DNA from: Catajapyx aquilonaris
Lineage: Eukaryota
Direction: 5' to 3'
NCBI GenBank assembly: GCA_000934665.2
Contig: KZ538061.1
Span: 62,001-126,000 of the forward strand
Length of the DNA: 64,000 nucleotides
A program made the position numbers and the translations under genes. Position 1 is the first letter of the stretch; each line of letters opens with the position of its first letter. Positions 16,319-64,000 of the stretch are shown in pieces. The notes under the pieces were generated by a model. That model made no database searches and was not told where the DNA came from. It was given only the letters and a program-made list of their open reading frames with translations.

Positions 16319-17204
16319 GGCACCAGTCAGAGTGTGTCATCCGGAGTGCACATGGCCTCTCCACTGTTGCGGTCCTTTTCCCCACAGGTGACTACCACCG
16401 ACCCGTCCTCCACGGCCACACTGGCCTCTTCTTTTCCACCAGCCTGCCCACCAACTCCATAATGATTCCGCCGCGTCTCTCTCTTCTTCCGAAACTGCCC
16501 CCGCACTTCTGGCGGGCTCAGGGTACACGAATTCCCCGCCAGAGGGAACCCACGTCGTGTGAGGAGAGGGGGAAGGGGTAGGGTGGGCCAAACTGCAGCA
16601 CCCCCGAAAATTTTCGGGCGCTACCAAGGTTGCAGCCAAAGGGGAGGGCATGGCCCGGGTCCAGCCACGTGCCTAGGAGGGCAAATCCTCTACCGAAATA
16701 ATCCGGTGCATTCCAAGCATGCCGCGCTTCCTGGTTTGCCATGCTGAAAACTGCGAATTGTTGACGCCAGCAACAATGGAAATAATCGAATCCCGTTACG
16801 GCGACTTCCAAATGACGTCATTGGGGTGGTTGAGTTTGCGGATGGCAGATGGCAGCACCGGTTGGGCGCCTGAGCGACACGCGGCGGCCGGTTGGGGAAG
16901 CAGTGTTTGTCAATGACTCAATCTCAATGGTGGGTGAGGATCGTCTGGTTAGTGTTTCGGTCTGGATCATTAGACAAGGATAAGAGGCTGATGTTTGCCA
17001 TACGAGTTGGTGCGATCTAGATACAGCAGCACCCGGCGGACTGACGCCCACCAGTTGGGGGTTTGTATATCTCTGGAGGTCCCGTTCATTCAGTATCATG
17101 TGTAGCCAGATGGTGGTGAGTTGACCATGAGGCGTTGGTTGTGTTCCAGGGTGGTCCAGGCTGTGGTCCTGCCCCTGGCCAACTACAAGAGGACCGCCGA
17201 GGGG
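16319..17204. promoter_or_regulatory. GC-rich region between divergent CDK14-like and SLC35F5 start codons (5'UTRs plus putative bidirectional promoter)
   Basis: Less than 0.9 kb separates the divergent start codons, and the region is GC/CpG-richer than the SLC35F5 introns. Transcription start sites are not determined. Confidence 0.5.
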
Positions 17205-23200: not shown

Positions 23201-23935
23201 GGAAAAGTAGTTGTAGTATCTGATTAGCTGTGACTCTTATAGCTGTGCAGGTAATTTGCAGCCAAAAAAATTTGGTCATTTCTGTTATGTAGTCATAATT
23301 TTGAGATAATGGGAGATAAGGTAAATAAGAAAACAGCCTTGAAGACAGTGATATCAGCTATCATGATTCATGCAAGGTGTTAATGAGTTTCTCAAGTACA
23401 CTTGCAAATTCCCACAATGTGCAAATGGCAAGTGCCATTATGAGAGCGTGGCATGATGCATAGCATGAAATGCTTCTCACCTTGGGAAAATTCACCCGCA
23501 GCAGATATAATCTCATGTCTTAATTTCATGTTGCAGGGGATGTTTCCTGACCTCGTCCCTCATGGCAACACTGTCTTTGAGCTTGACCATTCCCATGTCA
23601 ATGATGGCAGATGTGATGTTCAAAAATGTCAAGTATCCCCTGCTGTTTTATGTTGGGAGTGCGCCCATGTTCTTGGCATTTTTTGCAGTCACACTACTGG
23701 CACATTATGAGAACTGGGACCCAATAGTAGAAGTGGCAAAAAGGGCTTGCTATTCCTGCTGTTATGGCAGGGGTGTTGTGAGGTGGGTTACTGTTCAGCC
23801 GTTACTTTTGATGGTAGTTATAAATATCATTAATAAATCAATAAAATGCCTTTTTTTGTTTTCAGGATACGAGACTGTGATCGTGAGCAAACTGAATCAC
23901 TGATTGGAATCAATCTGGCAGAACATGAAGCATAA
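17205..23935 (+). CDS. SLC35F5: Solute carrier family 35 member F5 (EamA/DMT transporter), 10 coding exons, ~457 aa
   Basis: Exons 17205-17291, 18768-18905, 18980-19051, 19115-19225, 19293-19445, 20943-21125, 21602-21755, 22706-22865, 23537-23782, 23866-23935. All introns are GT-AG and frame-consistent. Translation includes [121 protein letters not shown], typical of SLC35F5. The start could lie slightly upstream (open frame from 17121). AATAAA at ~24815. Confidence 0.93.
20247..20652. mobile_element. Degenerate Tc1/pogo(Tigger)-like MITE in an SLC35F5 intron
   Basis: Imperfect TIRs: ta|aagtgaatcattggttatccgaa at left versus reverse complement of the right end ta|gagtggagcatcgattatccgaa. TA flanks, with subterminal ggttatccgaa-like repeats. 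Confidence 0.6.
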
Positions 23936-30530: not shown

Positions 30531-31626
30531 ATGAAGTTACTATCTCTGGTAAGTTAACATTTTCTTTAATTAGCTTGTAAGTTATATTCATATGCCGTAA
30601 TAGGCGTTAAGTCTCATTCTACTGTACTGATAGTGATTTACTTATTTGCAACAAAGCGATGTCAAATTGCGATTAGCGGTAACTGTCGTAAGATATAACC
30701 ATAATGTTGTGTGGTAATACCTGCCACATCTTTCTTACAAAATATGTCCCCCTGACCTATAGTAACAAAATAATGCAATAGGATTATCTTTAAAAAAACG
30801 TAATTAAGTAATCACGTGTGCCTGAATTTCCTTTTATGTCCAAATAAGCTAAAGTGTCTCAAAATCCAGCCTCTGCTGGGAGCACAATCAAGCTTTTATG
30901 CGACAAAATTTGAAAGGCACAGTTGAATGCCTAACCACACTTATTCACGCATTATTATTTCACCCATTTCTGTGTAAAGCGACATGCACGAACTACCCAC
31001 TTCCTGCAGAGCCGCTTACTGGTCTGTCACATTGCTCCAGATAGCTGCACCATGTGAAGACCTGAAACGCAGAACGATTACACTCACATTATGGTCTAAA
31101 TTGAGTCAAGCATTGTGCAATATATTCCTTGGTACAGTCCATCGCTCCATATAATTTATAGACCTCCAAATAAATGGGTGAAAAAATATCATTCTATCTT
31201 GCTGCATCTTCAAGTCCATATTACTCAGAAATTAATAGAGCGATTTGTTCCCACCAGATTCTGGTCCTCCTGGGCGTCATCTCTGCGGTGGTGGCCAGCT
31301 CCTACTCCCTGGAAGATGTGGTAGCCCTGGAGTCGGACTTGCCAACCCTTCTTCGTGTCAGGAGAGGCGGGAAGGGAGGCGGAGGAGGAGGAGGAGGAGG
31401 ATATGGTGGGGGTGGCGGGGGCGGGGGCGGGGGTGGTAAGAAGGGAGGCGGAGGAGGAGGAGGNGGAGGCGGAAAGAAGGGAGGCGGCGGCGGCGGCGGT
31501 GGCAAGAAGGGAGGCGGAGGAGGAGGCGGGAAGAAGGGAGGTGGCGGAGGAGGTGGTGGCAAGAAGGGAGGTGGAGGCGGCGGCGGTGGCAAGAAGGGAG
31601 GCGGCGGTGGCGGGTGGAGGGGGTAA
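30531..31626 (+). CDS. Secreted poly-Gly/Lys peptide precursor with RVRR site, ~128 aa (cluster gene 3)
   Basis: TATAAAA 30437. Exon1 30531-30548 MKLLSL|gtaagt, exon2 31258-31626 ILVLLGVISAVVAS-SYSLEDVVALESDLPTLLRVRR-GGKG9YG...(KKG6-9)n-WRG*. AATAAA ~31683. Confidence 0.9.
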
Positions 31627-34929: not shown

Positions 34930-36146
34930 ATGAAGACTCTGTCTCTGGTGAGTTTTTCCATCGGCCATCATGACCCCTCTTGACCTGGTATTTTCTACTT
35001 ATTTATTTAGGGCGTTGTTAGTGCAATTTTACTACGAATAATAATCATTCTTAACATTAAACCGCAACACTCTGCTGCTGCAATTGCAACATTAATCCAA
35101 ATAATCAGTGTACTTTCCATAAAAAACTAAGCTTGCAGCGTTTGGAATATTCATTTGTAGCCCGTACGATAAATCCAGTGTAAAGTGTGCTGTAGTTGTA
35201 AAAAGTTTCGTAAAATCGTTGTCGTACCGAATATGATAGTACAAAAGTGCTGCTCTAAGTACCTAGAGATTACTTTAAAGGGACACTCAAAAAACAAGTT
35301 TGTCTCTAAAAATCGGGCAAGAAATCATGAATCCGAAGATGCCATCCGTTTTTCGCTACGCGGAACGGTAATCCCAGGGCGAGGGGTCAAAGAGGGGAAA
35401 TTCAAATAGTGCGCTAGAAGCTGGCCGTCGCCAGCGACGCCCTCGGGACCTTCGGAACTGGAGGGCTGCTCCCGCCTCCACGCGCGCTTAGGCCCATCCC
35501 AGGGCGGTGCAGCCCTCCAGTTCCCCTGTTCCCCGCGTGGCGGCGCCGCTCATTAACAGACGGCACACTTTGACACATCGCCCTGGGATTACCGTTCTGC
35601 GTAGCGAAAAACGAATTGCACCGTCGGATTCAGAATTTTTTGCCCAATTTTTAAAGCCAAACTTGTTTTTTGAGTAGAGTGTCCCTTTAACGTATCTAGA
35701 ATATCATGATTACTGACTGATTTCGAAGTGCCTTTCGCCAATAATGTCAACCCTCTATTGCAGTTGCTGTTGTTCCTGGGTATCTTATCCGTAGTGGTGG
35801 CTAGCTCGTATTCCCAGGATGATGTGGTAGCCCTGGAATCGGACCTCCCGACCCTCCTGAGAGTCAGGAGAGGCGGCAAGAAGGGAGGCGGAGGAGGCGG
35901 AGGATATGGTGGTGGCAGAGGAGGCGGCGGAGGGAAGAAGGGAGGCGGCGGCGGAGGAGGATGGAGGAAAGGGGGAGGTGGAGGAGGGGGGAAGNNNNNN
36001 NNNNNNNNNNNNNNNNNNNNNNNNNNNNNNNNNNNNNNNNNNNNNNNNNNNNNNNNNNNNGGGGAGGTGGAGGCGGCAAGAAAAAGGGAGGGGGTGGCAG
36101 AGGTGGTGGTGGGAAGAAGGGAGGCGGTGGTGGCTGGAGGGGTTAG
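34930..36146 (+). CDS. Secreted poly-Gly/Lys peptide precursor with RVRR site, paralog of gene 3; assembly gap inside the repeat (cluster gene 4)
   Basis: TATAAAA 34826. Exon1 34930-34947 MKTLSL|gtgagt, exon2 35764-36146 LLLFLGILSVVVAS-SYSQDDVVALESDLPTLLRVRR-GGKKG7YGGGR...[N gap 35995-36060]...KKGGGGGWRG*. AATAAA 36195. Confidence 0.87.
35279..35686. mobile_element. Kolobok-type non-autonomous DNA transposon (MITE), 408 bp, in the intron of gene 4
   Basis: TTAA|AGGGACACTC... and ...GAGTGTCCCT|TTAA. Imperfect TIRs of ~105-110 bp extend to cggtaatcccagggcga / tcgccctgggattaccg, around a GC-rich core. A TTAA target with purine (AG) termini fits Kolobok rather than piggyBac (CCY termini). Confidence 0.8.
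35995..36060. other. Assembly gap (Ns) within the Gly/Lys repeat of gene 4
   Basis: 66 N bases. The reading frame differs across the gap, so the true gap length is unknown. Confidence 0.95.
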
Positions 36147-36353: not shown

Positions 36354-37151
36354 TTAGACGTAGTAGTAGGCCGGGTAGGCCGAGTAGGCGGCGTAGCCGT
36401 GATGGTATGATGGATAGTACGTCGAATAATAGGTCGGCACGGTGTAGGCGACGTGGGCCACGTGATGGGATGTCTCCTGGTTCTGCAGGGTCTCAACGGG
36501 CTTGGCGGCGTCTCCTTCGGCGGACTCAGTGGCCATCACGGCGGTGAGGGCCAGAGCCAGGACAAACTGAATGCACAGATAGCATGAGAATTAGGCCCTA
36601 CAAATCAATATTAAATAACATATATGCATGGATTGTTATGTTTTTTCCACATATTTTGGATTTGAAAAATGTGGTGTTGCCCATTTCTAACTTGAACTTT
36701 AATACTTAAAAGGAGGACGGCCCGACAATAGCCTCTCGTCATAATACCCATTTCTAACTGGGAAAGGTTGCCATTCAGTTTTTGCTCTTAATTCATTGGC
36801 GTCATATTGATTATACAGGGCCTAGAGCACTTTTCAAATTATAATGTATGTGGTCCTAAGGTTTGACATGTTTTAGCACGTTGGAAATTTTGAATCTAAG
36901 TTATTGTAATATGGTGTAAAGTAATATTGCAATTTTACCCTTAATACAGTACAATCGGCTGTACAAGTTATGTCACAATATCCGAGCTAAGAAGATAATT
37001 ATGTATCTCAGTCTTCTTTCATATGGGATTGCTTAAAAACTTTACCAAGTATTTCCTAATCCCTTTAGATACAAAACACCAGTTTTAACAAACAAATTAA
37101 ACATTAACCACACAACCGCCCCCAAAACCTACTCACCAGAAACTTGTACAT
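36354..37151 (-). CDS. Secreted Tyr/Ala/His-rich peptide precursor, 75 aa, cuticle-protein-like low complexity (cluster gene 5)
   Basis: TATAAAA 37225-37231(-). Exon1 37137-37151 MYKFL|gtgagt, exon2 36354-36566 FVLALALTAVMA-TESAEGDAAKPVETLQNQET-SHHVAHVAYTVPTYYSTYYPSYHHGYAAYSAYPAYYYV*. AATAAA(-) 36225-36230. Confidence 0.88.
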
Positions 37152-41996: not shown

Positions 41997-44493
41997 TTAA
42001 TAGTCTTCCCAGTACGATCCCTTCTTCCCCCATCCCCAGGCCCCACCATGTACCACTGGTTTTTTGTGTCCTCCTCCTCCTCCGCTGCCTCCCTTCCATC
42101 CGCCTCCACTGCTGCCTCCCTTCCATCCTCCGCCGCTGCTTCCGCCCCCGCCGCCGCTTCCCTTCCATCCTCCTCCGCTGCTTCCGCCTCCGCCGCCTCC
42201 TCCGCTTCCGCTCCAGCCCTTCCAGATGAAGCTGGGCTTATGGAACGTTGGTTTCTTCCATCCGCTGTGCTTCCATGGCTTCTTTTTCCATCCACCACCG
42301 CTGCTCCATCCTCCTCCGCCTCCGCTTCCACTTCCGCTGCTACTCCATCCGCCTCCGCCTCCACTTCCGCTTCCGCTTCCGCTGCTGCTCCATCCTCCGC
42401 CTCCGCTGCCACCCTTCTTCTTCTTCTTCCAGCCCTTGCTCTTCTTCTTCTTCCAGCCGTCGCCTCCCTTCTTCTTTGGAGGCTTGGGCTTCTTCCATCC
42501 CTTCTTCCAACCGCCCTTCTTCCAGTCCTTCCATCCGCTTCCACTTCCGCTGCCGCTGCCGCTCCCGCTCCCACTACTGCTCCATCCGCCTCCTCCTCCA
42601 CTTCCGCTGTTGCTCCACCCCTTGCTGCTGAAGTCTTTCCAGCCCTTCTTCATGAAGTCCTTCCAGCCGCCTCCATGCATGATATCTTTCCATTCGTCCT
42701 TCCAGCCGCCTCCCCCGCTGCTGCTCCATCCGCCTCCGCCACTGCCCTTCTTCTTCTTCTTCTTTTTCCATCCGCCCCCGCCTCCACTTCCGCTACTGCT
42801 CCAGCCCCCTCCACCTCCACCTCCGCTGCCTCCCTTCCATCCGCCTCCACTGCTGCCTCCACCTCCGCCGCTCCATCCCCCACCGCCACCGCCACCGCCA
42901 CCACTCCACATCAGGGCGGCTCCCTGTGTCAAATCAAATGTGTCAATCCTTACCATACAGTTTATTTTATGAGTATTTTTGTATTAGTGTTGACAATATT
43001 ATTATGTGATTTACTGGTTTTTCGAACTGCTTTATGTATCGACATGCGGACATTTTTGCTTTGAGGGGAGGCAGGTCCGTGAAGGCCAGCGTTTATCACT
43101 TGCCCACTTCCACCAGGCTCAATTTGATTATTTTGTCTTCACCCAAGGCAAAAATGGACAGATTCTATGTGCGTAATCAATCTTGCAATCATTTCATATC
43201 GGCCCTTCTCTGACTGGGATGGGATACTATTGAGGCTCATATATACGAATTTGAGACTTTCAGATCAATATTGCAGGCAAACAGTTCGAAGTCGTTCGAA
43301 TGACTGCTTCTTTAAACAGTATCGAAAGAGAGTGGCAGCTAAAAATTTCGAATCTTGTGTGCAAAAAGTCGCTCTACATGTCTCAAGTTCGCAGATTTGT
43401 GAATAAGCCTTTACTTGTGTGCTTATCGAAAGTCCGAGAACACTTTTCGATGCATATTGTAGGACCCAGCTCGTTACGATAATTTATAAAGTTTATACGC
43501 ACTAAATGCAGTGTTTATTAGTCATATGTGTAATGTAGCTTTTGTATGTGGTCAATAATTCTTTCATTTGCTTCAAGTAGCTCTTATTCTAAGATAATTT
43601 TTTGTTGCCAGGCATAGTTACATGATAAAAGTTTATAACATGTCATCCTATACCGTATATCACACTACGGGGCTAGCAACGCTATTTGAAATGTCCTGCA
43701 GGATAATCCCAATATCAAATATGAAAAATATTCATGACTTAATTGCTACCGCACGCAGCAATTAAACAATTATGCAAATTTTTGATTCATAATAGGCAGC
43801 CCTGCCTAAAGCCAACGCGGGTAATTAGCTACTGACCACCATGTTTCTTGTAACGTAAGATAGAGTTCAGTAAAATGTGTGTGGGCCTGGTGTCAATTCC
43901 TTCATCCTTATTTATAGGCCAGTGCAACCCTCAATTGGCACGAGGGTTGCTGACACATAAGGATGAACCTACCTCCAAGTCGCTCTTCTCCACCTGCAGA
44001 GTGGTGGATTCCTCTGTGCTATTGCCATCTATAGGACTGGTAGTGGGTGGTACTACAGGCGACGTGTCATTCTCCGCCGCAGATGTCCAGGCGGCCAGAA
44101 AGGTCAGCAAGAGAAGAACCTGGAAGTTAACGAAGAGGTCAAGGTTGGTCGCCGCCATACGTCAAAGACTCAGTTGTGACCTTTCGCGGGAGAATTAGGT
44201 TACAGAAGACCTAGTGACCAGGCCAAAGAATGTGGCAGAACAGGTTATTCCTCCACACGTTGCGTCTGTTCCAACTAGTTTTCCCCCCTGACACTGTTCG
44301 GGGTCAAGTTGCGTCATCAATTGCGGAAGATATTCACTTAGTGGGTCACCGGATCCTAGACTATGAGATGTTCTAGGATAGTATCGCGCTAGTACAACAC
44401 TATTGGTTCGGAAGAGGGAGGGTTCAAATCACTGCTTTTTTTATCGCACTATATGACCACTTGTCGCGTTCAACTCACCGGAATCGTCTTCAT
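41997..44493 (-). CDS. Secreted Gly/Ser/Lys/Trp-rich block-copolymer protein, 362 aa, 3 exons (cluster gene 8)
   Basis: TATAAAA 44594-44600(-). Exon1 44479-44493 MKTIP|gtgagt, exon2 43973-44119 VLLLLTFLAAWTSA-AENDTSPVVPPTTSPIDGNSTEESTTLQVEKSDLE|gtaggt, exon3 41997-42923 GAALMWSG10WSG...WKKKKKKKG...GKKGSYWEDY*. Both introns are phase 0. Confidence 0.9.
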
Positions 44494-45563
44494 CCTGCTA
44501 CTCCTTCCAGGTGCTCGCCTAGTAACCCTGGCCCTGACCGATGTGTGCAATGTCGTGTTCCCGTCTGTCAGAAGTGTGTCGGTCCCTTGCCCGTTTTATA
44601 TGAATGGGGGGAGGGCCCCAGCCAGGTCGGGTCCGTCACCTCTCGACCGCCAGCCAACAGCCGTGGGCTACCTACGAAGAGCTAGCTAACCAGAAGACGA
44701 ACCAGAAAACGGCGCGCGCCGAGTTCTACATCTTGTAGCCAGCCTCTAAAGATATAGGGGATGGTAGATGGTGGGGGTGGGAGGGATTTGGAAGAAGAGG
44801 AAAAAAAATATATAGAGAGGGGGGGGGGGGGAAGGGGTGCAAACTGAGAACGCACCTGAGAAGAGCTATTTCACCGTTGTTCATATACGGATATGAGGGA
44901 GCAACGACCTGATATTTTTTGGGAGGTCTTTCTAGACTCGTGGGAGCCTCCTTACCACGTGGTGACTAATGTGGCGGTATTAATAAAAGGGGTGGCTATT
45001 TTTGAAAGGGGCTGGATTGACCCCATCAATAATTCACATTGGCAATGTGCAATATGTGGCCTAAAAGGGATGAGTGAAACGTGATATTGTTCTTTTTAAT
45101 TAGCTAAAGTGTCATATGCTAATTATAATAGCTATAATGCTGCCGACGTGAATGAAAAAACCTGATTGATATTTTAATTAGCTAATATGTCTGTAAATTG
45201 CATATTGACATAATGCTGAGGAAGTAGGCTACTTACGTCATGAAAAAACCTGATCAATAAACAACATCATTACGCTAATTTTTTAAAAAAATATTGTGGC
45301 ACAATAATTCGGATTGTACATTATCAGAACTTGTTTTCAGTTTGAATCTGCCTGACTATTATTTTTCACCACATCCATTGTTGAATCCATTGAGATGCTG
45401 ATTGAGGTAGCCGGAGAGACCAGTAACTGTACTTCTTACCTGGCAGTTATTATGACAGAGCATGATCGTTAACGTCATCATGTGACATCTTTGTAAGGGT
45501 TCATAAATGAATAAAATACAACAAACGAGTCTTTCCATGGTTTATTGGGAAATGAACCCCTGT

Positions 45564-46658
45564 TTATTTACCCCAGTGATAATTCCATTTCGGATAACCG
45601 CTGCAGCAGGCACGGTAACCTCTATTCCAACGAGGATAGTAATTATTGTAGTAGGGGTAGTTTCCGTAATATTTAGGATAGTAGTTCTGGTAATAGCCGT
45701 AATATTGTGGATAGTTGACGTAGCCGTAGCCGTAGTGGTAGCGAGATTCTTCGGTGTCTTGGTCTTCACTTACGGAGTAAGCTTCTTGGGCATGATCTTC
45801 ATTTGCGGGTAGACCTTCATTGTTACTAGGGTTCACTTCGTTGGGGTTTTCCTCAGCCAAAATGCAGCCAGCCAGCAGAAAAGCTGCTAATATAACCTGA
45901 AACATTTTGACCTAATTAGCTCATGATTTTAACATATTTTGCAGCTAAACTGGAAAATCGACATATGACAGTACGTAACGGAAGTAAATAAATAAAACTG
46001 TCTGGTTTTAGGTAGGCCTAGACCCTATGCAAAAAAGAGCTTACTCATTAGCATCCCAAATTTTATTGGGCCATTATTAACCAGTTAATGAAATTGCTCC
46101 CTCGTAATATGGCAAACTTCTCGTGACAATTTTATAATCATTGCAGGCTATTAATTATCATTACATTTTTGTGACTCTAAATGCAGTACGATATGATCTT
46201 TTCCATCAATTATGACATCCCCATTGTAATTTAGAAGCAATAAATGCATATTGACCCTGCAATGCGGCATAAACTCTTATTACTGTCAAGTAACCCCACT
46301 TTCGATCCCTTTTCCTTTTCACTTCGGACATATCACCCTTAGGTGACCACACATGATAACGAAATATGCAATAGTTAAACGTGCATGTGAAACGGAAAGT
46401 CGCTAGAGAAAATGACTTGACGTTTTTCTTGCAATTGAGGTTGATGGATGCCTCTCCTTATACAGTACGAAGATCTGTTATAATTTCTAACAGACAGAAT
46501 GTCTACAATGAAGGCAGGTCTCATTAGCGTAAAGCGGTACGCGTTAAATGATTGCAAAAACATTACACCTCATAATATTATAGTGAAGGGAGGAAGTATG
46601 TTTTGAGAGGAAAAACGTTTTAATACTGAAGTAGGTTACTTACCAGGATCTTGGTCAT
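45564..46658 (-). CDS. Secreted acidic-pro / Tyr-Asn-Gly-rich protein, 115 aa (cluster gene 9)
   Basis: TATTTAAA-like element ~46742-46751(-). Exon1 46644-46658 MTKIL|gtaagt, exon2 45564-45896 VILAAFLLAGCILA-EENPNEV...SEDQDTEES-RYHYGYGYVNYPQYYGYYQNYYPKYYGNYPYYNNYYPRWNRGYRACCSGYPKWNYHWGK*. Confidence 0.88.
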
Positions 46659-47303
46659 GGTGTCAAGGGTGAGTAAAGGAACACTTCTTGCGATACGAGC
46701 AGTATGAGGTATGAATGCCTTTTTTTGAACTCTACGGGCGTTATTTAAATAGGTTTACGATGGCCTTGACTTTGAAAGCGTCAGACCAATTTACTCGATT
46801 TTCTGACCTTCCAGACGTGAATGCGCAAATAGAAATTCCCAGAGCATTATGATTTATATCAGTAGTTTTCTCATGCATGAAGACGCAAAGGATGTGTCTA
46901 TTTTCGTCATGACTTGTAGATGTTATCATTGGCAATTTATCGTCTCATAAAACTAGCAAAGTTCAGCGTTCGGAGTAAATGACAGCCGTTTTTACAGCAG
47001 CTTTAATCCTATTTCACATTCAATGTCGTACTGTATGCTGACCCGAACAGGATGTTCCTCTTTTTTCTTGTACAAGCGCGTTGTGATCTTGGTGAAAGGT
47101 CGTCCAAAACCTGTTTTTAGGTGAGGAGGTGCACAAATGGAGTTTCCCACTGACCCTAATTTTGTGCAATTACACAGCATGAAAAATGGCAATATTCCAA
47201 TTTATATTTTTTCTGCCAAAAGCAAATTCTGAGAAATTTTACATATGCATCCATGCGTGACCCACATTTTTTTTTAACTGAGGTAAATGTTCACAAATCA
47301 CAT

Positions 47304-47786
47304 TCACCACACTCGTCCATACAAAGGATGATAGCCAAATCCGTACCAATCAGCACCTCCAGATCCAGTTCCAAGCCCGGATCTATCACCAAACCATCCC
47401 AACCCTGACCCATAAAATAATGCTTTCCGATAGTTCGGAATCGGATTTCGAGCAGGTTTTTCAGCCCCGATGATGATATGAATAGGACCATTCCACAAAC
47501 TACGGTCCTTTCTGTCCTGGTGGTCCCCGGATGCCCACACTAGAAGCGTGAGAAACTATAAAAAAGCGAGGGGAAAAAAAGTAGACCAATTAATTTCGTG
47601 ATCGTAGACTAGGCTTGGAAAGGGGAACAAGTGGCTGGACCAACCAGTTTTTTTCGTGTTGAATATTCAATGCGTAGGAAGCTATGCGTGGGTAATAAAT
47701 AAAGCCAAAGGATGATAACTGCTATGGTTGATAACCATCATTTAAGAGAAAAAATTGGTACTCACAAGCAGTAATTTAGGTAGCAT
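47304..47786 (-). CDS. Secreted Gly/aromatic peptide precursor, 90 aa (cluster gene 10)
   Basis: TATAAAA 47849-47855(-). Exon1 47766-47786 MLPKLLL|gtgagt, acceptor ttttttatag, exon2 47304-47555 FLTLLVWASG-DHQDRKDR-SLWNGPIHIIIGAEKPARNPIPNYRKALFYGSGLGWFGDRSGLGTGSGGADWYGFGYHPLYGRVW*. Confidence 0.82.
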
Positions 47787-48166
47787 CCTAGCAGAGTACA
47801 GGACCGTACCAGGTAGCGGAGACTTCTACTGCATTTCCTCATCCATGCTTTTATATGTACAGTACATGTCGCATATTATGCATGGACCCCAAAGTTCAAC
47901 GGTCCCAAATCCGTGCCAAATTCTTTGGTACGGAAATGCCTTTTCAGGAATTCAATAAAACATTGGTGCCACGATTCAGTCAACATTTATTAAGTTACAA
48001 ACGTTGCAACAAATGTTAGTGTGCGAAAACAGTCCGAGTTAGTAAACAACAACAACAACAGAATCAACAACAATGTGAATTTGTACGACGTGCGAGATGA
48101 ATTTCTTTTCTTTTACTATGGGAAGATGAGTGCAAGGTGATGTCGGATGTCAATGTCGGATGAAGT

Positions 48167-49610
48167 TTAATGCCAGTCGTAGTCGTCGTCCCACCATTCG
48201 CCCTTCTCCCCCCAGCCCTTGGCCCCTCCGTGCTTATGGTGTTTTTCGCCCCCGCCGCTCCATCCTCCGCCACCGGACCACCCCTTCTTCTTCTTGTGCC
48301 AGCCCTTGTGCCAGCCGCCCCCGCCCCCGCTGCCGCTACCACTGCTGCTGTGCCCGTAACCCGCAGTCTGCAAACCAACAAGCAATAGAGTCAGTATATG
48401 GTCACACATACATTGTTGCGGTTCAGCCAATTCCTACTGCGAAAGAAAGGTGATGGATCACCACCGGCATGTGAATTAGTTTGAATAATACGTCACGTAT
48501 GTACTCTCCTGTCGTCAGTGTCATCGTCGTCAACGTCATTGGATTACAAAAGGTGATCAGAAGATGGAAGCAGGAAGAATGGACACTGGTTGGGAGCGTG
48601 GGTTTGAATGGAATAAAAATGCGAAGGCGGTGGTCGTGTAAGGGTCAAGGTCTTTTTCCACTTGGTACGCTGTAACATGTGTTACTGCTTGACCAACATG
48701 CGTAGGGCAGATAGGGAAAGAATTAAAACCAATAGAAAACTCTTTTGATCCAATTAAAGTCCGATTGGGATGAATAATTTTTGTCATTAGCATATTGATT
48801 ACATTATTTCCTTGCACTAAACTTTGGTCAAATTGCTGTGCATCATGCAGAGCCTCACTATTTCTGCTATGAGCCAATCAGGCTTGGTTGAATAAATGTA
48901 ATTGCTGGCATTCATATGCCTACTGCCCCTCGAGGGAGAAATATGCATTTTCAATATTATGCAGCAAAGTTTTACCAGATCTTGGCAAATGGTGGTCAAT
49001 CAGTAACAGAACTATCGAATACGTACCACTCCTTCAACTCAAATGATTATATCGACTACATGTTACAACGTCTAGAGTCTACTAAGGTCATAGTGTCTGC
49101 CAGGTCGCTACTGGAGGGCCAAAGCTGAGAGAGAATGAGTTGCAATACATACGTCCAAGTCTCCTTTGACTTTTTCAGGGAATGGGGAAGCGGCGACCAG
49201 TGCCAGCAAGGTCACCAGCAACAGCACCTGCAAAGAGAATCCAACCGGAACACTTGACGTGTGATCGTAAAAATCAGTCCCCAGGACTCGTGCGTCACCT
49301 CCTCATCCCTCGTTTTGGGGAATGCCGTGCTACAGGTTACAAAGAGGGCTAGCTCGGCTTTTTGAGAGAAGATCCTAACAGTCCTCGGTTCCTCTGGGTG
49401 TTTCTCTATGGAACCAGGTGAACGCCCTTCTCGCAACATCCCTAACCAAACTGATGGCTACCACGCCCTAAAAGGCTCCGTTCTGACACACACGAGAAGT
49501 AGTGTTCTCACAACAACTAGCGTTCCAGAACAGGTTGTGTGTTTGGATCATCCTCAGGGGCCGACATGAAAAAGAGTCTAAAGTTCAAATCTTACCAAAA
49601 GGGTCTTCAT
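48167..49610 (-). CDS. Secreted Gly/Lys/Trp/His peptide precursor, 96 aa, 3 exons, short paralog of gene 8 (cluster gene 11)
   Basis: TATAAAA 49720-49726(-). Exon1 49596-49610 MKTLL|gtaaga, exon2 49153-49227 VLLLVTLLALVAA-SPFPEKVKGDLD|gtatgt, exon3 48167-48367 TAGYGHSSSGSGSGGGGGWHKGWHKKKKGWSGGGGWSGGGEKHHKHGGAKGWGEKGEWWDDDYDWH*. Confidence 0.88.
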
Positions 49611-52600
49611 CCCGGCTTGCGTACTCTCTCTGGTCCGCAGCAGCAGCCTTCTGTAGAGGATGTCGCACAACCCAAGCACCTCCTCTCTTATGTTGCCGAA
49701 AGCTGCTCTCCCGCGATCCTTTTATATGGGTTAGAAATTGGTGCTAAACCTTACCCTGGGCAGTTCTTGTTACCCTGCACCGTTATCGAAGAGACATAGG
49801 GTGAAGGTAGCCACTCAACCAGGTCAATGGGCAGGGCTACTTCTTGCGTCGGAGGCCTATAAAGATCCTACATACCGTGTTCCTACAGGTTCAAATGGGA
49901 GGAGATCGGGTGAAAACTGGGATGCAACTTTCATCTTTCTCCTTGTCTCGTGTACGGTGTGTGTTTTTGTTGTTTAGCTGCTGGGTGGGTGGGTCAGGAG
50001 GGGGGTGTTGAAGAGGAGGATTCCATGACAAAACCGGAACACGCCTGGTAATTGAAGAGGACAGATGAAACTGGAAAACCTTTCTCTCTCATCTTCACGC
50101 AACACGGATTTTCTTTTTGCCACTGATCCGTTTTCTTCTATAGGTTTTTAACACCCTTAACAATCCTTGTTTTTGGTGATATCTATAGTGGGTGACCCGG
50201 AATTTTTGGAGGGATGACCCGAGTTCTATCTTTCTTATGGATAGATCCGACGTGAGTGCAAGTGCTCGATCCTTTAACCCACTTTGGTATGCCCTTGCCG
50301 CAGGTGACGACCCACTTCACTCTATCTCTTCGAACTGTGCCATCGTTCGGATGAAAAAATTGCTTCTGGAAAAGAAAAAAAAATGTTTCTCCGGCTTTCT
50401 GGGGCCCGTGGTTCGCTTTCTTTTCAACCGGAAAAAAGGAAATCGACAGCGGATTAACTCGTCTTTACAGTTATATTTGAAAGTGTAGAAAAAAATACAT
50501 TCGCTCTCGAAATTAATCACTTGATAAGTTAATGTAACACTGCTGTTATGCTATAATGTAATGCGTGGTACGTGAAGTTTATATTATTTTTAATACTCCT
50601 TGCTGCCCATCGCAAGAATTCAAAAAATACTGTGACATTTTTCATTTCTGATGGTGTAGTCTATAGCAGTAAGGTGAGAACTACTGCAAATAATAATCAC
50701 TGGAGATATTGTCACAATAGCATTTGGTGTACTTGTTTGAAGAAATATTTAAATTTTTATCTCTTCTTGCATAAGCCTTCTCATAAGTGTAAGTTAAATA
50801 ATATTGCATGATGTTTACGTGCCTTAAATTATTTCAAGAAGAAAATCACTCTGATTACGCTACACGTAGAAACTGATGAAATAGCAAAATTGTACAAAAT
50901 GATAGCAATAACTATGCAATAGTATAATAAATTCAATTGAAATGACGTGTCATGTCAGTAACATGATAATTAGATACATGCTGTTTTGTCTTTCTATTTA
51001 AGTTATATTGAGCATGTCATCAGTTTCATTTTGCGAACTACGTATTACGTATATTAACACCTACACATTAAATTACTTAATTAAAACTACAGTCTACTAA
51101 AAACCTATATTTTCATTGCATAAATCTAAAAGAATAACTGCTGGGTGACCAGCAGTTGCACATGACCACACTAATGTCGACTAATGTACTGTTAATATGA
51201 GATTGTAATTTATGCACACTTGAGGGACCGCATTCCTTCCAGACAAAATCTCTTGCCAAACCACTTTTGCGAATAAATATCTAGATTCGCAAAATGGATA
51301 GAAGAAGCAGCATACTGAACGAAAGCAAAAGTGTACTTGGCCATTTCCCACGCTAACTGGACTGACTGAATGGCTCCCAGCCAGCACCAGGCCAATTACT
51401 TTTGGCCGAAAATGTAGCGGGACTTTTTGCACATGATGGGATGCAAAAATGATGTTCCCTGCTGGCGGGAAGCATGCAGAAAGGAGGTTTCCATCCACAA
51501 GAGTGCACATTTTCCCAAGCCGGAATCTCAAGATATTCGAGTTAGGTAACAAAGTGTTTCCCAGTTGACCTTAAGCCAAAGTGCATTGCGAAAAAGGGCG
51601 CCGCCGTGACACGTGAACATTTCCGTTAATCCATTGTTTCCAGTCAAACATTTCTCACATGGCGTGAATTCTCCTCGTGAAAATTTCGCATAACAGTAAT
51701 AATCACCTTTACTCTCGTATGTGATTGTTGTGGTGATAAGACCGATAAGCGATTTTGCACGTGCCGAACTGTTCACACGGCGTGTACCAGCCCATAATTC
51801 ATCCGATTCCATTGTTTGGTGTTTTACAAGTGTGTGAGCTGCAAGTGTGGAGCTACTGTGAGCTTGCCTACACCGTAATTATTGTACTGTGTTGAACTTC
51901 ATGCAAAATTTATAAAACAAGATCGCGAAGGGAAGAGTGATTACACTATTGTAATACTAGCAACTAGCAAGTATACCTAGTGGAGAATTTTCTCGAATAA
52001 GCAAATTAGAAGCTATTCTAAATCCCAAAAAATTACATTCCAAGCAGGATAATGATATGAATTAAGTGCAATTGCAAGTACTTGATCATAATCATTATGT
52101 AGGTATTTAGATGCAATAGGCGTGTTCGTGTTTCAAAGTATTTCATGTCACAGAAACAAATAGACATTCACGCAAGAAAAACGACTAGGTAGGTTTGTAG
52201 GTGTGTAGGACAGATTGCAATTTGCAGGATGCCAGTCATGCTATAGCACCGGTATTAAGTTATTAAGGTCTTGCTAGTCTTCCGATACAAAAAAAATTAG
52301 AACGCTATCTACAAAACAATTATTCACAATACCTGTTCTCGCTCTCCATTTCTTTTCGATTTTTTTTCTTTTTCTTTTTTTTTTTTAAAAAAAGAAAGAA
52401 GCCGCTCCACAAAAGTGCCCTCCTGGTGAAGTGGGTCAAAATTTCCATTCACGATGCATCAGGATGGAAGCCTGTACCTCATCAGGTTCATGAACCACGA
52501 AGGGCAATGAGGGATAAGGAGAAGGATAGACGAAGTGAAGGATTGATCCTGTCACTTTTGAATAAATTAATAATTTTGCACTTGTTGGATGAATGCCCTA

Positions 52601-52844
52601 TCCAGTTGGATATGTGGTGAAAGCTGTTACTACCGCCTTGAACTTGAATGTCAAGTAGAAAATCTAGTTATGTGAAGGTTATTCACTCCGACGTTGACAT
52701 ATTCTAATTTATTATATCAACACTAATGACTAACACAGATTGATAGTTTGACACTCACACTTTTTATTTCTACAATGTCACCTACATTCAGGATTGTTCT
52801 AAGTTGACAATAAAAATGGCGGAAAAAGTTGGTTGCTCATGATG

Positions 52845-53526
52845 TTACCAGACTTGCTGCCTGTACCAAACGTGCGGTCTGTAGTTTGAGTCTCCATAAA
52901 CCGAGGTGGGTCTGTAGTAGCTGCCGTAAGTGTACTGGTACCGCTGAGTAGGACGAGCTGCCAGAAAAGTGGGCCACATCCAGCCGGCCGCCTTCAGGTC
53001 ATCCTCAGGAGCATCCTTGACCTCAGGTGCCTCTGGCCCTTGCGGCAACGCACGAGTCAAAACGATGCCGATCACGGCCAGCACCAATATCTGCGGCACA
53101 AATGAGAATAATTATTATCACAAATGGTGCTGTTAAGTCGTTTTATTATAGCTTTAATTTTATTGCATTGCACTGTACTTTTGTACGCTGGGTTGTGGTA
53201 AAATGATGAGTTATCTCTGACTCACATGGACCACCGGATGTAACAGTGCACATTATAAGTTACATTAAAAATCATTTCAGTTACTAAATTCCAGCATGGA
53301 TATCATTACAAGAGTTATCAGATGTATAAGCAACATTAAATATCTACATCTATCAATAAGATAATGTCATTTTCTACATTTCAAACTGTTTTGTTACAAG
53401 CAATGGTCAATTGAGATTTTTCTGCACAAAATCTCAATTTATCTCATAACCGTGGTCCTGATTATTAATTGTTATTGTACTATTTGCACTTTTCCATATT
53501 GTGAAGCCACTTACCACAGATTTCAT
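52845..53526 (-). CDS. Secreted Tyr/Arg/Trp-rich peptide precursor, 85 aa (cluster gene 12)
   Basis: TATAAAA 53660-53666(-). Exon1 53515-53526 MKSV|gtaagt, exon2 52845-53090 ILVLAVIGIVLTRA-LPQGPEAPEVKDAPEDDLKAAG-WMWPTFLAARPTQRYQYTYGSYYRPTSVYGDSNYRPHVWYRQQVW*. AATAAA(-) ~52763. Confidence 0.88.
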
Positions 53527-56500
53527 GGCTCCTCTGCTGTATTTTAGATGACCTATAACACCCTCTACCACCAGCACACGATCGGAGCTACTTTTGGATG
53601 GTTCCTTCCGGTGGGCCTTTTTTAGTCCAGGTGAATCAAGGAGACGAAACCAGGCACCCTTTTATATCTTGGGACCAACCCTCGACCTTGGAAGTCTGGG
53701 TTCCCGAGATAGTCTTTAAATTCCAAGCATCAACCCCAACCAACCCAGGGTGGGTAATTAATTGCCCAAACTGAAATAAATGATCCTTGGCATCTGATGC
53801 ACGTGCTCACCATGGGGTATAGACAGGGTCCTTAATAGCACTTAGCTCCTGTCATATACTCTGGGTCCATCTCAGGTGATTTCTCACCCACCTGTTACCC
53901 ACGTGCTCTGTTCTCATTCCTCCCACCACTAATTCTATTCAACGACCGATTTTCAAGCCACGCAAGGCTTTGGGAATACTTAACATGGGCACTAGAATAT
54001 TCTGTATGAACTGAACTTGATTATTAAATTTGAGTCCTATGTGCATTATCATAATAAGAGCAATATTGTAGTAATTTTTAAAATTTCTGCATGCTTTGTC
54101 TTACACGCGTGTCACCTCTTCTCCGAGCTAGTCAGCATATTTTGCCTTCGTACAGTACAAGTGTACATGGCGGCCAATTTCCAGGTGCACTGAGGTATGC
54201 TTCGCTGGTTGTCTAGTAGGTGGCAGCATCATTCACTGCGGATGTCTTGAAATTGCAATATGATAGCAAAATGTGCAAGAACTTGAGTAACTCACGCTTC
54301 CAGTAACTCCGTTAATATTATAATGACGCATAATTTTGTAACACTTCAATGTGATTATCAAACTAGCTTATTATAATCCTTTTGCATGTGAATATTTTCA
54401 TGAGGCAGGTCGCAGGTACAGGCATATTTGTGTAGATGTCACTTCATGCTGATAATAGTGAGCTGAAAATTGTGAGAAATAAAAATGGTTTTTAAACTGT
54501 TATTTCAAACGGAGAGTTCTCGTATTAGTAGCATGCTATAAAATGTTCAAGCGAGCTACCACATGCCCTTTATTTTATGGCTGTTGCGATTATTATATCA
54601 GAAAATAGCTTAAAGTAATCGTGATTAAAAGGAGGAAATAGTAATTAAGCCTAATGCCTTTAGATATGCTTGACTTGTACAGTAATGTGTTCATCATGAA
54701 GAACGGGTTCCACTGCTACTAAATATGTGCAAACTTTCTCCTTTATTAATAGAGAGGTGTTCATCATGGTGTGGGCTTTATTTTTACATAATAAGAAATA
54801 CGATAGGTGTACAGCAAGGTCCGCATCAGCTGCCCAAGAGATTGTTTAATTTCACTCCAAATATTTTCTTGATCATAATTATTAGTTGAACGTTGCACTC
54901 AATATCATCAGTTGCTTACAACATCAAACATATATCATTCCCTCTCCGTGCATCAAACCAGCACTCCAGATGATCATCCATGGTCATGTGCGACGGCGAG
55001 GAGTCCTTATCTTAGTATTACTTGCGGTTTCATTAGTCATCGCTGTCCTTGAAAGAAAATGTCCTGATGTAATGAATGACTTATTTTAAAGTTTTTATAG
55101 CTTGATTTTATAGTGATTGGTAAAAATTATAATATTCAAAATTATTACGATATGTTTTTAAGAAAGAGAAACTACAGGAGTGCAAAAATTATGGGCGCGT
55201 GCGTACCATTTTTACAAGATATAATCTTAATTGAAATGAATATGTGCTTTATTATGAGTTTATGACTGTGTTTAAAATTAAGCCAAGAAATGAAATAGTA
55301 TTGTAGTGAATTTCTGGGATCTCATCAGGAAATGCTTGTACGTTATGGGTTTTGATTTCATGTTACGTATGTTTGTATAAGTTTTCAGTGCAATACCTCT
55401 ATATGATCAAAGTCTAGGAATGTAACGTGTGCACCGCTATAGTCAATAATAATGCCGTGTTTAAGCGTGAGAGGCCGCCTTTTCTTGACGAGAAAGTAAA
55501 ATTTTAATATGCCTAATCTAAGAGTCATCTAAGTTAGTCATGGAATTGTGTAATATCAAATCCTTCGGTCAGGGTACCTAGAATCCCTCCACATAAAAAT
55601 GGGCTAAACAATATGAATGCTAATTGCAATCAATCACATTTGCCTCACAATGGAGTTCTCATTTCGACCTTTATTATGTTACAGTGTATTGGCCTGTTAC
55701 ACAACAGGGGAGAGTAATGTAAAGACTAATGATTATTAAATTATTGTTGTTATATCAAGCAGACGTATAAATTACTGGAGTAATTAATTATGAACCAGAT
55801 GTAATATTTGGAAGGCCATTAATGCACAATGGTTTTGAGTGGAAAATCTCTCATAAAGACAACGGAAAGGCACTTTTCCTTGCACATATGCAACCCTTCA
55901 CACTCATCCCAATGGAAAGCTGTATCCTAGAACGTATGTAACCGTTCTGGCATTAAACCTAACCTGTTTTGAGCGTGGTAATAACTGTTTTAAAATGTTT
56001 TATCAACTCTAATAATTATTTTCACTGATCTGTAGCGTGTAACTTAAGGTGTAACTGCTCATTGCTCTATGAAAATGAAATACTACTTACAATATAAAAA
56101 AATTCGTACACAGTTCAAAGAATTCAATTATTCTGCCAACACATATACGTGGTCATACCTGGTCACACGTTTTGGCTCACCTCTTCAACAAACCGGAGGT
56201 CAACTTTTTTGTGATGATTTTTCTGGTTTGGTTTACACGTGTCCGTTGTACAGGATATACTAGATTCCAATGTCTCGTAACCGGTAAAAATGACGCAATT
56301 TCTATGCCTTCTGCATTCTCAATTCCGGAATTTACTTATCTGGGAAGGTAGGCCATTTCTTAAAAGTCTTCTCGAGTTCATTCTTACACACTTACCTGTT
56401 ACGAGGTCAATGCCAAGGATATTACACTTTTTTTTTACCTGTCAGCTCAGGGTCAAGGTAAGAAAGATGACGTCCACGTTATCCCAGTCTTCATCCTGAT

Positions 56501-56821
56501 TTATGGTACGGAGGCTACTAAACTCAAGTGCACTGAAATGAAACGGGTTAGGATTTACGCCTACTGTACTACCCTTTTTTTAAGGTCGGCTTTATTCACC
56601 CTCTTGTAAACCCCACAAAGTAAAACGCAGTACGTTACAAAAAACAGAGACTTTACTGGGGACGAATTTGGCAACAATATACAGGATTCTTCTAGTACGG
56701 TTCAAATCGCAACAGTAATATACACCTCTCTTGTTACCTTCCGGGTACAATAAATTATCTTTTGGATATCCGTGGAGGGCGGAATAAATTAGAGCCAGGG
56801 TTGCCATCAAGTATGGGTCCA

Positions 56822-57529
56822 TCACGTCTGACGCCACTTTTTGCCTCCACCGCCGTGACCGTGACCTCCGCCTCCCTTCTTGCCACCCTTTTTGTTGCCC
56901 TTGCCCTTGTTCTTCTTCTTGTTCTTCTTCCTCTTCTGCTTCTGGGCCTTCTTGCCGTAAACTCCCTTGTAGGTGTGTCCCTTCACGCCCCAGCCATATG
57001 GACCTTTGCTCTTGTGGCTGTACACCGGGTAGTGACCTCCTCCGCCACCGTGACCTCCGCCGCCGCCGCCGCCTCCGTACCTACAAATGCAGTCAGTAGC
57101 AAATTGCATTTGTTGCAAAAAAATCCATGCTCACTTACTTAACAACAATAGGACGCCACCACATCCAGTCGGCGGTGTCCAAATCTGTCTCCAACTCTTC
57201 CTTTTCGCCATCTCGCTGACCCCATGCTATCGTCGCCAGGACGATCAGCAAGGAGCCAAGGAGCTGTGTGAACAAATAATAAAAAAACAGCAAGTTAACA
57301 TCTGACCTAACTGGCAATTGACCAACTGTACCGTTACAGTTAGCACTCACTGCCAAATTTTTTTCGCAAAATTTAATTTTAAAAATAAATTGCGAGATAG
57401 GCAACAATTTAACACCAAACTACAAAAAATTAAGTCCACGCACTAATTTTTGCACGATGGTTTCCATAAATACACGCGCGATATCACTGTTCCTGCTTGT
57501 GGTCACCAACTTACCACCAGTCTCATCAT
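56822..57529 (-). CDS. Secreted Gly/Lys/His/Tyr cationic precursor, 132 aa, 3 exons (cluster gene 13)
   Basis: TATATATAA 57668-57676(-). Exon1 57515-57529 MMRLV|gtaagt, exon2 57139-57263 LLGSLLIVLATIAWG-QRDGEKEELETDLDTAD-WMWWRPIVV(K) ending phase 2, exon3 56822-57080 YG8HG5HYPVYSHKSKGPYGWGVKG...KQKRKKNKKKNKGKGNKKGGKKGGGGHGHGGGGKKWRQT*. Confidence 0.88.
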
Positions 57530-60642: not shown

Positions 60643-61638
60643 TTAGACTTTAAAAAATGTTTTCAAAACAGGATTTAGGTTGGGGAAAATATCAAGCTGA
60701 ACAAACCCTCCTCCGTAGATGCTGATACCAACAGGGAATATTAGAAATTCTGATTCTTGCATTGTTTCCTTTTCCTCCGCCGCAACTAATGCGACCAGAA
60801 GGCTCAGGCAGTAAAGAAGCTGCACAAGTATAAGTTAAATTACTTCAAATAATTTTTTTAAATGTAAATGTCGGAGTGTATGCACAGTATTTAACTTACG
60901 GCAATTGATGCTCTGCAGAGCCTGTCCATGGTTTGCTTCTGTTTTGATATATTTTGTCTCTCTCAGACCGCTTATATAGTCATTTGGAAGGCCAGATTTT
61001 TCGGGTTGTTTTTGGTTTTTGGAACCCAACTTTCGAAATATTGCGACATATACAAGCCTTGGTGCAATACTGAAATTGACTCAACTGATAAATGTTGTGA
61101 TGAGTCGGGTCCAAGACACATATTTGTGTTACTGGAGCAAAAATGAAACATTTATGCGTAATGAATATTTCATAGTAACCACTCCTTGGATATAGCGAGG
61201 AAACGCCACGCAGTCGCCGGAAAACACCTAACGTCACTTGCACCTGGAAAACCTGCTTTGTGGAATTTTTGGGCTGTATACAACCGTAGGCCTTGCTTAG
61301 GATGTTGGTAGCAAGTTTTTCTGGAATAAAAGTAGCTGTGATTTGCTGGGTCTTGAGAGACTTTTACTATCGCCATTTTCAAGTCTTGCATTGGAGAAGG
61401 CATGCAGGATGAGCTATAAAGACACCATCAACCTAACGTGATCACTGATCGTTCCACGTGCATATTTCAACACTGCGAATTAATTATGTCCACATTTTCA
61501 AATCGATTCTAATTTCCATAAACTGTTGCAATTAAATCTCACAAAACTATGATTTTTATTGCAGAAATTTTATTACTGTGGCAGAATATCAAGGGAGGTA
61601 CTTAGGCCTACCTCATGCAAACGAATTAATTTGGCCAT
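60643..61638 (-). CDS. Secreted acidic-pro / hydrophobic peptide precursor, ~67 aa (cluster gene 14); first coding exon tentative
   Basis: Exon 60643-60819 after ttgtgcag: LLYCLSLLVALVAA-EEKETMQESE-FLIFPVGISIYGGGFVQLDIFPNLNPVLKTFFKV*. AATAAA(-) ~60564. Candidate start exon 61612-61638 MAKLIRLHE|gtaggc. TATATAAA 62049-62056 with a donor at ~61927 suggests an extra 5'UTR exon. Confidence 0.7.
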
Positions 61639-62571: not shown

Positions 62572-62808
62572 CGACTTTATAATTGATATATTTAAGGAGG
62601 TTGGCCCAGCATTGCCTTCCAACCTCCAAGGATAGGGAAGGAAGGAAGCGGCTGTGGCCTATTATACGGAAGCAACCCCGGAATTATCCTAGAAAGACCG
62701 TGGAAAACCACAGAAAACCACGGTCAAGGTTGCCGGCCCCGGGATTCGAACCCAGGACCTCCCAATTAGCAGTCGGACGCCTTAGCCACTATGCCAACCT
62801 GCTTCGGT
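62572..62808 (-). mobile_element. tRNA-derived SINE with 12-bp target-site duplication
   Basis: Minus-strand head accgaagcaggtTGGCATAGTGGctaag...cctgGGTTCGAATCCcgg contains A and B boxes. It is flanked by the exact direct repeat cacattttacac at 62560-62571 and 62809-62820. Confidence 0.85.
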
Positions 62809-64000
62809 CACATTTTACACTGAGGGAAACATTGCTTTGTTTTTTTCGGTTTGGTTTTGAGAAGCAACACGAACCAAATGAACACTGGATTTTCAGAATG
62901 ATCAGAGGACCTTGTGGTCAAAATTGAGCCTTTCATCAGGTCAGTTATCTATAGAGAAATTCTAGTCTCCCATGGATAGTTATTTGAAAAGAATCGATCC
63001 CAATAGGAATTATGCAATTTCAAAATTCAAATGGGCTCACGTTGCTATTTAAAATAATTAGTTTATGTTGCAGTATTATGTACCATTATGCTATAGTTAG
63101 ATCGTTCTGCATTTTCAGTATTTAGTTGTGTCGCATCAAGTAATCTCTTATTGTAGATGGACCTGTAAGCAGGAGAAGTATGTCCGGGAACAAAAATAAG
63201 CAAATCTGTACGCCAACAATATTTTATTGGCAAAATCATGGCATGATGAACAGCAAGTGTAAACGTACAAGAAACGACAGCAATGAAATAAACAATGAAA
63301 GATTGCTTCTGCAAGCGTTACCACCACCATCCGCCATAGAATCCGGGGAACAGGCCGAATCCAAATCTGAAATCAGTGAAATGGGAGTAAGTCCCCGTCC
63401 TTCACCCTATGAGCCCCAGTCATTTTGATTATAAGTTATTTACCCCCATGGTCCCCAGAAGGTTTGCGACGTCTCCATTTCCTCCTTGTCCTGTTCCTTT
63501 GCAGGTGCTGCCATCGCTAAGCACACCACCAGAGCCACCAAAAGAAGAGGCTGCCCAACAATGCTATTTGGTTAACAACCTCAAGATTTATTTCTCAATT
63601 TTTAACTTACCAGGAAAGCCTTCATGTTGTAATATATTATAGTAAGTTCAAACTGACAGTGCCGAAGACTAGGACCAGGGTCAGACCACAGGGCCAGTTT
63701 TATATGGGTGGTCAAGGGTACATTTCACCCGAAACCAAAAACAACATTAAGTAGCTCTATAGTGAAAACAAGTTTTATCAGAAATGGCCCTCTTCTAATC
63801 CAAATATAGATTGGGAGAAATTGTTGTTTGTAAAGTTCCTGTCTAGAAGCAGGTGTAATTTAGGCATAATATTTTAATTGCGACCCTTACCGGCGATACG
63901 CTCAAGGAATTTGTCTAATTGCATTTTTGGCCAGATTCCCGTAAATAAAACATACCGGTTGGAGAGCGGATATTGTTAAAGTATATAACAGGAACGGTTT

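Follow-up and report, generated by a model that had tools for sequence, protein, structure and literature searches.

The 64,000-nt stretch of the Catajapyx aquilonaris genome analysed here, positions 62001-126000 of contig C142 (KZ538061.1; hereafter the window), holds about 15 small genes of one design between about 26 kb and 64 kb. Behind a TATA box, a first exon of 3-10 codons and a phase-0 intron, each has a hydrophobic signal stretch, then a charged leader of short length, and finally a tail of low complexity. In several of these genes, and in relatives elsewhere in the genome, the leader closes on a short junction word, which we define as [DEKT]-[LM]-x-[TAG]-[AS] and which is absent from leaders that end in Arg. 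The word is a real feature and is wider than the window. We propose that it may be a non-basic cleavage signal, cut after L-x-T-A/S, whose use would remove a solubilising leader from structural low-complexity proteins; judged from the sequence, this proposal is about evenly poised between right and wrong.

The junction word in the window

An earlier note on the window, whose gene numbers are kept here, described a DLxxA-[WL]MW junction in genes 8, 11, 12 and 13, and these four strict junctions, all on the minus strand, are present as described. Gene 8 (41997-44493; predicted exons 44493-44479, 44119-43973 and 42923-41997, phases 0,0) would encode a secreted product of 362 aa, rich in Gly, Ser, Lys and Trp by composition. 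The first half of its junction, DLE (43973-43981, within KSDLE at 43973-43987), ends exon 2 ahead of the donor GTAGGT, and the second half, GAALMW (42906-42923), begins exon 3; the phase-0 intron between them (42924-43972) is predicted from the gene model and splice-site scores. In the predicted model of gene 11 (48167-49610; exons 49610-49596, 49227-49153 and 48367-48167, phases 0,0), KGDLD (49153-49167) is spliced to TAGYGH (48350-48367) across a predicted phase-0 intron (48368-49152, donor GTATGT). Gene 12 (52845-53526, two exons) has DLKAAG-WMW at 52974-53000 ahead of a Tyr/Arg-rich mature part, and gene 13 (56822-57529, three exons, phases 0,2) has DLDTAD-WMW at 57159-57185 ahead of a Gly/Lys/His-rich one.

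Splice-site scoring ranked the called donor and acceptor of gene 8 best of 7 and best of 4 local candidates, and those of gene 11 best of 5 and best of 6. Both donors are weak (6.5 and 4.0 versus 7.6-13.6 for the 11 training donors); the acceptors are strong. With splicing as predicted, the open-frame models place a phase-0 intron after DL[ED] in both genes, at the same position within the motif, as the earlier note had it. Genes 8 and 11 are identical at 11 of 16 residues of a C-terminal block (E 0.003) and also share Ser/Gly/Trp blocks, Lys blocks and the three-exon layout. Because they are alignable paralogues the common intron represents one event, and it was rejected as independent evidence. 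The claim of common ancestry despite divergent mature parts is borne out by sequence likeness, but the genes are not "otherwise unalignable", given the match between 8 and 11. Genes 12 and 13 are a paralogue pair as well.

By itself DLxxA is common, with 13 matches across the six frames of the window. Its position is not random: in composition-preserving shuffles of 8 leaders, the probability of at least 4 of 8 was about 7e-7, and that of at least 2 of 8, counting two lineages only, was 0.004, values that are overstated because the motif was picked after the fact. Gene 15 (63318-63625, minus strand, three exons, phases 0,2), which lies beyond the interval of the earlier note and was absent from its list, has EMETSQ-TFW at 63455-63481, and its EMETS beat the shuffles (p 0.002). 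The looser versions of the motif that had been listed for genes 5, 9 and 14 did not (p 0.16, 0.24 and 0.38).

The word elsewhere in the genome

Gly/Tyr-rich loci were gathered genome-wide with three patterns of tail words only, the junction motif playing no part. Every contig matched was taken in with its neighbours, the N-termini were read, and the boundaries of the leaders and their classes were assigned by eye. Of the genes collected, about 15 begin their tail directly behind the signal, about 6 carry a different N-terminal domain, and a charged leader is present in 11. Three of these leaders end in Arg (C1890, C1136 and C2289, the last two with signal exons not firmly placed). The other eight, five on contig C4020 and one each on C5956, C217 and C264, all carry [LY]-x-T, in the forms KLDTA (twice), KLETA, KYQTS, TLETS, KLETS, DLNTS and DLKTE.

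A profile made from the four window words found its best site 1-3 residues ahead of the low-complexity domain in 8/8 of these outside precursors, for which the positional chance is about 9e-4. When the sites were compared with shuffles, single p values ranged from 0.006 to 0.55 and the combined value, with one value per contig, was 3.3e-4; the same test on 7 Arg-ending control leaders gave p 0.11 and 0.58. In the reverse test, a profile from the eight outside words recovered gene 15 (p 0.002) and gene 13 (p 0.010), and gene 12 weakly (0.08). Strict DLxxA and [WL]MW each match none of the eight outside genes, so what the earlier note had described was a local form of a more widespread word, whose conserved core is L-x-T-[AS]. 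[WL]MW, present in three of the four strict genes, is local to the window cluster and was rejected as part of a general signal. A third WMW match, DLGAADWMW at C2775:4305-4331 (L026), had no signal exon or low-complexity tail nearby and was treated as chance.

The outside genes resemble one another and genes 13 and 15, gene 15 being closest to the relatives on C4020 and C5956. The conservation is thus that of a single loose family rather than convergence, and the sample is effectively smaller than 8. The word persists despite synonymous differences in its codons, and the length of the flanking leader ranges from 12 to 59 residues. A word-only scan of the genome gave 35 matches versus 21 for the control. 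Among more specific own-genome patterns, DL[DE]TA[DE] gave 19 matches (control 21), with only gene 13 in a small secreted gene; DLx[TA]A[EDG]W gave 25 (control 21), with only genes 12 and 13; K[SG]DL[DE]+GT gave 21 (control 17), with only genes 8 and 11; and [DE]T[AE]ExR[YF] gave 21 (control 21), with only gene 9. One longer pattern had 0 matches, and MAFFT alignments did not keep the motif in register.

Possible cleavage at the word

Cleavage at the word is plausible. The word is found in 13 of the 15 leaders without a terminal Arg and in none of the 8 that end in Arg; by lineage the counts are 5/7 and 0/7 (p 0.02, under a rule written after the data were seen). As the earlier note stated, the conserved word is not dibasic: R-x-x-R, KR and RR are absent at the junctions of the motif genes and present in genes 3, 4, 10 and C1890. 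The C1890 leader ends in KPKR, followed by four residues and then LGY. In C4020a-e and C217, LGY stands at that same distance behind LDTA, LETA, YQTS, LETS or LNTS. From the register of KPKR we infer a cut after Ala or Ser, which in genes 12 and 13 would fall one residue before WMW. Thus a processing role has indirect support, because Arg-ending leaders lack the word, Arg-less leaders mostly carry it, and KPKR lies in register with it.

In the mechanism that we propose, the genes would make up a loose family of small secreted, disordered arthropod proteins rich in Gly, Tyr, Trp, His and Lys. Composition, clustering and likeness of design make a structural function, in cuticle, egg shell or secreted matrix, the most likely one. 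After the signal peptide would come a short charged leader ending in the word, which would be recognised by a protease needing no basic residue and cutting after a small residue, with Leu at P4 and Ala or Ser at P1, give or take about 2 residues. Some subtilisin-like and elastase-like enzymes are known to prefer a hydrophobic P4 and a small P1. The putative cleavage would do the job done in sister genes by furin-type or single-Arg sites; in the secretory pathway the leader would hold the aromatic-rich domain in solution, and once it was gone the domain could assemble extracellularly. In many relatives the leader is missing and the Gly/Tyr domain directly follows the signal peptide, so that the domain can work without one; this too favours a cut, if indirectly.

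Several points weigh against cleavage at the word. The register argument comes from one gene, C1890, which resembles C4020a weakly (p 0.03-0.04) and has an exon context of low complexity. Behind the word the residues are highly variable (D, G, A, S, Q, E), its Thr is missing from genes 8 and 12, and in C264 the proposed P1 is Glu. In gene 9 and in a metagenome gene, Arg stands right behind the word and could be the real cut. The outside genes, being interrelated, represent fewer independent events than 8, and leader limits and classes were set after the sequences had been seen. Only 2 of the 35 word-only matches lie in small secreted genes, so the word alone is low in information. Finally, the study of the tick protein GRP77, in its accessible part, treats the charged N-terminal part as retained.

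Leader charge and alternative readings

The earlier note had proposed that an acidic pro-piece neutralises a cationic cargo. Net charges of leader and mature part are -7/+42 in gene 8, -6/+25 in gene 13, -4/+4 in gene 12 and -1/+2 in gene 11; the mature parts of genes 5, 14 and 15 carry 0 to +1, and 6 of the 8 outside leaders are mixed Glu/Lys with a net charge of 0 to -2. Because the charges mismatch in most genes, neutralisation as a general function was rejected. The related description of the junction as a switch away from an acidic pro-segment does not suit gene 11, whose leader is not acidic. The tails differ in composition, Gly accounting for 129/305 mature residues in gene 8, 22/63 in gene 11, 32/95 in gene 13 and 2/45 in gene 12; the first three thus reach the level of about 20% or more that is typical of GGYGG-type cuticular proteins, and gene 12 falls below it. 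No GGY or GGYGG repeats were seen in these four genes; some outside relatives, e.g., C4020d and C264, have them. Every tail has aromatic residues separated by Gly, Ser or Pro, and the proteins look disordered. Given the misfit of neutralisation and the parallel with GRP77, a solubilising cap, removed or retained, is the better reading of the leader.

If the leader were retained, it would act as a charged cap tuning solubility or phase separation, and the word would be a binding, sorting or modification site, its Thr being, for example, phosphorylated or glycosylated in the Golgi. We consider this unlikely. It agrees with the account of GRP77, whose acidic N-terminal part is described, in the accessible part of that report, as a retained regulator of phase separation (bioRxiv 10.1101/2023.03.27.534361), and with Thr being the most constant residue outside the window (8/8) while the residues behind the word are variable. 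Retention leaves unexplained, however, both the absence of the word from all 8 Arg-ending leaders and the in-register KPKR, and the word has no Thr in genes 8 and 12.

Less likely again is that the word is a relic of descent, left by a signal-plus-leader exon copied onto fast-evolving tails, or a composition preferred at the ends of charged leaders. The word genes are indeed linked by a detectable likeness of the whole leader-junction piece, two pairs of them (8/11 and 12/13) are paralogues, and the family is small, about 13 genes with the word having been found on 5 contigs. But composition-keeping shuffles are still beaten, and although the upstream leader has changed much in length and sequence, the word has been kept, as has its spacing from the low-complexity domain. 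The word also recurs in a gene from another organism, found in a metagenome.

Improbable, finally, is the version in the earlier note, in which antimicrobial or membrane-active cationic peptides are neutralised by the acidic pro-piece until a non-dibasic cut: the mature parts of genes 8 and 13 are Gly-rich and strongly cationic, gene 12 is balanced, and acidic pro-pieces are known, from the accessible parts of the sources, in hymenoptaecin (PMC2853521) and spider linear peptides (PMC7889660), but the leaders of genes 8 and 13 fall short in charge by a factor of 4-6, the mature parts of genes 5, 14 and 15 are neutral, gene 11 and 6/8 outside leaders are near neutral, and the accessible part of PMC7889660 itself reports no obvious relation of pro-piece length to the number of cationic peptides. 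The cationic members may nonetheless have an antimicrobial role.

The junction word beyond this genome

A pattern applied to metagenome contigs selected LETAE and GYGG. Among the 120 stretches listed, 2 contigs, representing one gene (locus L111), were secreted and Gly/Tyr-rich with the word; many others were off-frame artefacts of the pattern. With splicing as predicted, the L111 gene has a TATA box, a five-codon first exon, a phase-0 intron, a signal, an acidic leader, ELETAEG, Arg and Gly/Tyr repeats, of which the pattern had not called for the exon layout, the signal, the leader or the Glu in front of Leu. The earlier note had placed similar junctions in other arthropod proteins; because a single spliced eukaryotic metagenome gene speaks for it, a wide arthropod spread is only thinly backed. 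Another metagenome locus, L146, is a secreted Gly/Tyr-rich gene of a different processing design, its repeats being separated by KR and acidic Ala-dipeptide spacers. None of 51 pattern matches in viral contigs lay in a secreted Gly/Tyr-rich gene.

Protein homologue searches gave 1 candidate for the gene 9 exon and 53 for alignment A2, none of which was scored, and 8000 for gene 8 exon 3, none at E<=0.001. A full scan of 1.84 billion representatives with the gene 9 exon returned 0 matches, and leads in the ESM Atlas were all below 0.9. These blanks are probably due to low complexity and are not evidence of absence. The word was not described in the full-text literature searched, a scope outside which lay subscription journals, figure images and the supplements of PMC2853521. 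The supplements of PMC3766229, PMC2932725, PMC3244413 and PMC7393499, mostly without sequences, gave no relevant match; PMC2932725, in its accessible part, describes other Tyr motifs.

It is conceivable, if doubtful, that the word marks an arthropod-wide route of pro-protein processing not yet described, in which a protease would read [DEK]-L-x-T-[AS] without a basic residue, the site would be evolutionarily interchangeable with furin sites, and cleavage would trigger the assembly of low-complexity extracellular proteins. If so, the mature N-termini of many unannotated secreted proteins would become predictable, and a ready substrate for finding the enzyme would be at hand. Arthropod low-complexity secreted proteins escape ordinary homology searches, and the junction word offers one of the rare means of sorting them into groups. 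As a cut site it would indicate a protease of the secretory pathway and a switch controlling the assembly of cuticle or matrix; uncut, the word is still a family marker, of modest importance.

Other genes in the window and related loci

An N-terminal hydrophobic, signal-like stretch, judged by eye, is present in all gene models. No Pfam match above the curated cut-off was found in 17 exon translations from the window, in 2 pieces of L111 or in C4020b; the 285.6-Mb genome has 66 matches to Chitin_bind_4, the Rebers-Riddiford cuticle domain. The loose matches are all on the minus strand. Gene 9 (45564-46658) is Tyr-rich, with a long acidic leader ending in EESR (45741-45764). Genes 5 (36354-37151) and 14 (60643-60929), with TLQNQET at 36468-36491 and TMQESE at 60745-60765, are not significant. 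Gene 14 may have a third exon behind a phase-2 intron (donor 60707, a weak GTTTGT; acceptor 60619, minus strand). With that exon its tail would end in GGGFPYPFFGR, and the layout would be 0,2, as in genes 13 and 15.

Three genes provide contrast cases. Gene 10 (47304-47786, minus strand), within the interval of the earlier note, has a leader that ends in RKDR and lacks the junction word. Gene 3 (30531-31626, plus strand) is Gly/Lys-rich with a leader ending in the furin-type RVRR, as does that of its paralogue gene 4 (34930-36146, plus strand), whose Gly/Lys repeat contains an assembly gap (35996-36061). In genes 3 and 4, D-L-P-T stands five residues before RVRR (31336-31365 and 35842-35871, plus strand) and might be a degenerate copy of the word (p 0.11 and 0.15).

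Elsewhere in the window, a multi-exon membrane transporter gene, presumably resembling SLC35F5, lies at 17106-23900 (plus strand), its single exon frames giving no Pfam match. Between genes 14 and 15 a tRNA-Ser(GCT) was called (62731-62802, minus strand) that could be a tRNA-derived repeat. Among the loci gathered from the rest of the genome, L248, L256, L259, L292, L299 and L305 (contigs C289, C567, C1806 and C4305) form a separate secreted family with a conserved, non-repetitive N-terminal domain, YGYxIxGPYG...VNN, before the Gly/Tyr tail; the one member tested had no Pfam match. At L294:1701-2081 (C2289) a Gly-rich stretch is followed by a WAP domain (E 1.8e-8), a layout that we take to be crustin-like.

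Comparison with known systems

The processing quadruplet motif (PQM) of spider venom precursors requires Arg at -1 and Glu at -2 to -4, according to the accessible part of PMC7889660. Like the PQM, which is read by a dedicated protease before a cationic cargo (same source, same part), the junction word is short, conserved and non-dibasic and closes a charged pro-piece. Unlike the PQM, it has no Arg at the junction in genes 8, 11, 12, 13 and 15 or in the 8 outside genes, and the PQM rule fits only gene 9 and the metagenome gene L111. As for Glu, an acidic residue occupies the x of L-x-T in most genes but not all, and the outcome depends on the cut position. The cargo differs as well, being here a low-complexity Gly/Tyr/Trp protein.

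Furin-type cleavage follows the rule R-x-x-R. Sister genes 3, 4 and 10 and C1890 have furin/dibasic-type sites at the place where the motif genes have the word and no basic residue. With the defining Arg absent, the word belongs with neither PQM nor furin sites. In other respects the genes are like furin/dibasic precursors, such as navitripenicin and hymenoptaecin with their acidic pro-pieces (PMC2853521, accessible part), in joining a signal, a charged pro-piece and a Gly-rich mature part. That a furin-like site can be swapped in evolution for another type of site is reported in the accessible part of PMC6585902.

Compared with Gly-rich arthropod antimicrobial peptides, genes 8 (+42) and 13 (+25) have a cationic mature part, whereas genes 5, 11, 14 and 15 stand at 0 to +2. 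In design the genes are like Gly-rich cuticular proteins (honeybee GB12449 and GB12811, PMC3766229) and tick GGY proteins (PMC11772090), which in the accessible parts of these papers are small, secreted, Gly/Tyr-rich and mostly Cys-free, with a tiny first exon and tandem clusters; honeybee Gly-rich signal-bearing proteins of this style are epidermal (PMC3766229, likewise). Unlike them, the four strict window genes lack GGY repeats and are rich in Trp, Lys and His, and gene 12 is not Gly-rich; neither paper, in the same parts, mentions a pro-piece or junction word. In tick GRP77, as its preprint relates in the part accessible, the aromatic C-terminal part drives phase separation and the negatively charged N-terminal part delays it, and no cleavage word is described there (bioRxiv 10.1101/2023.03.27.534361). 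The genes described here have the same order of parts, a charged N-terminal part before an aromatic, Gly-spaced disordered one.

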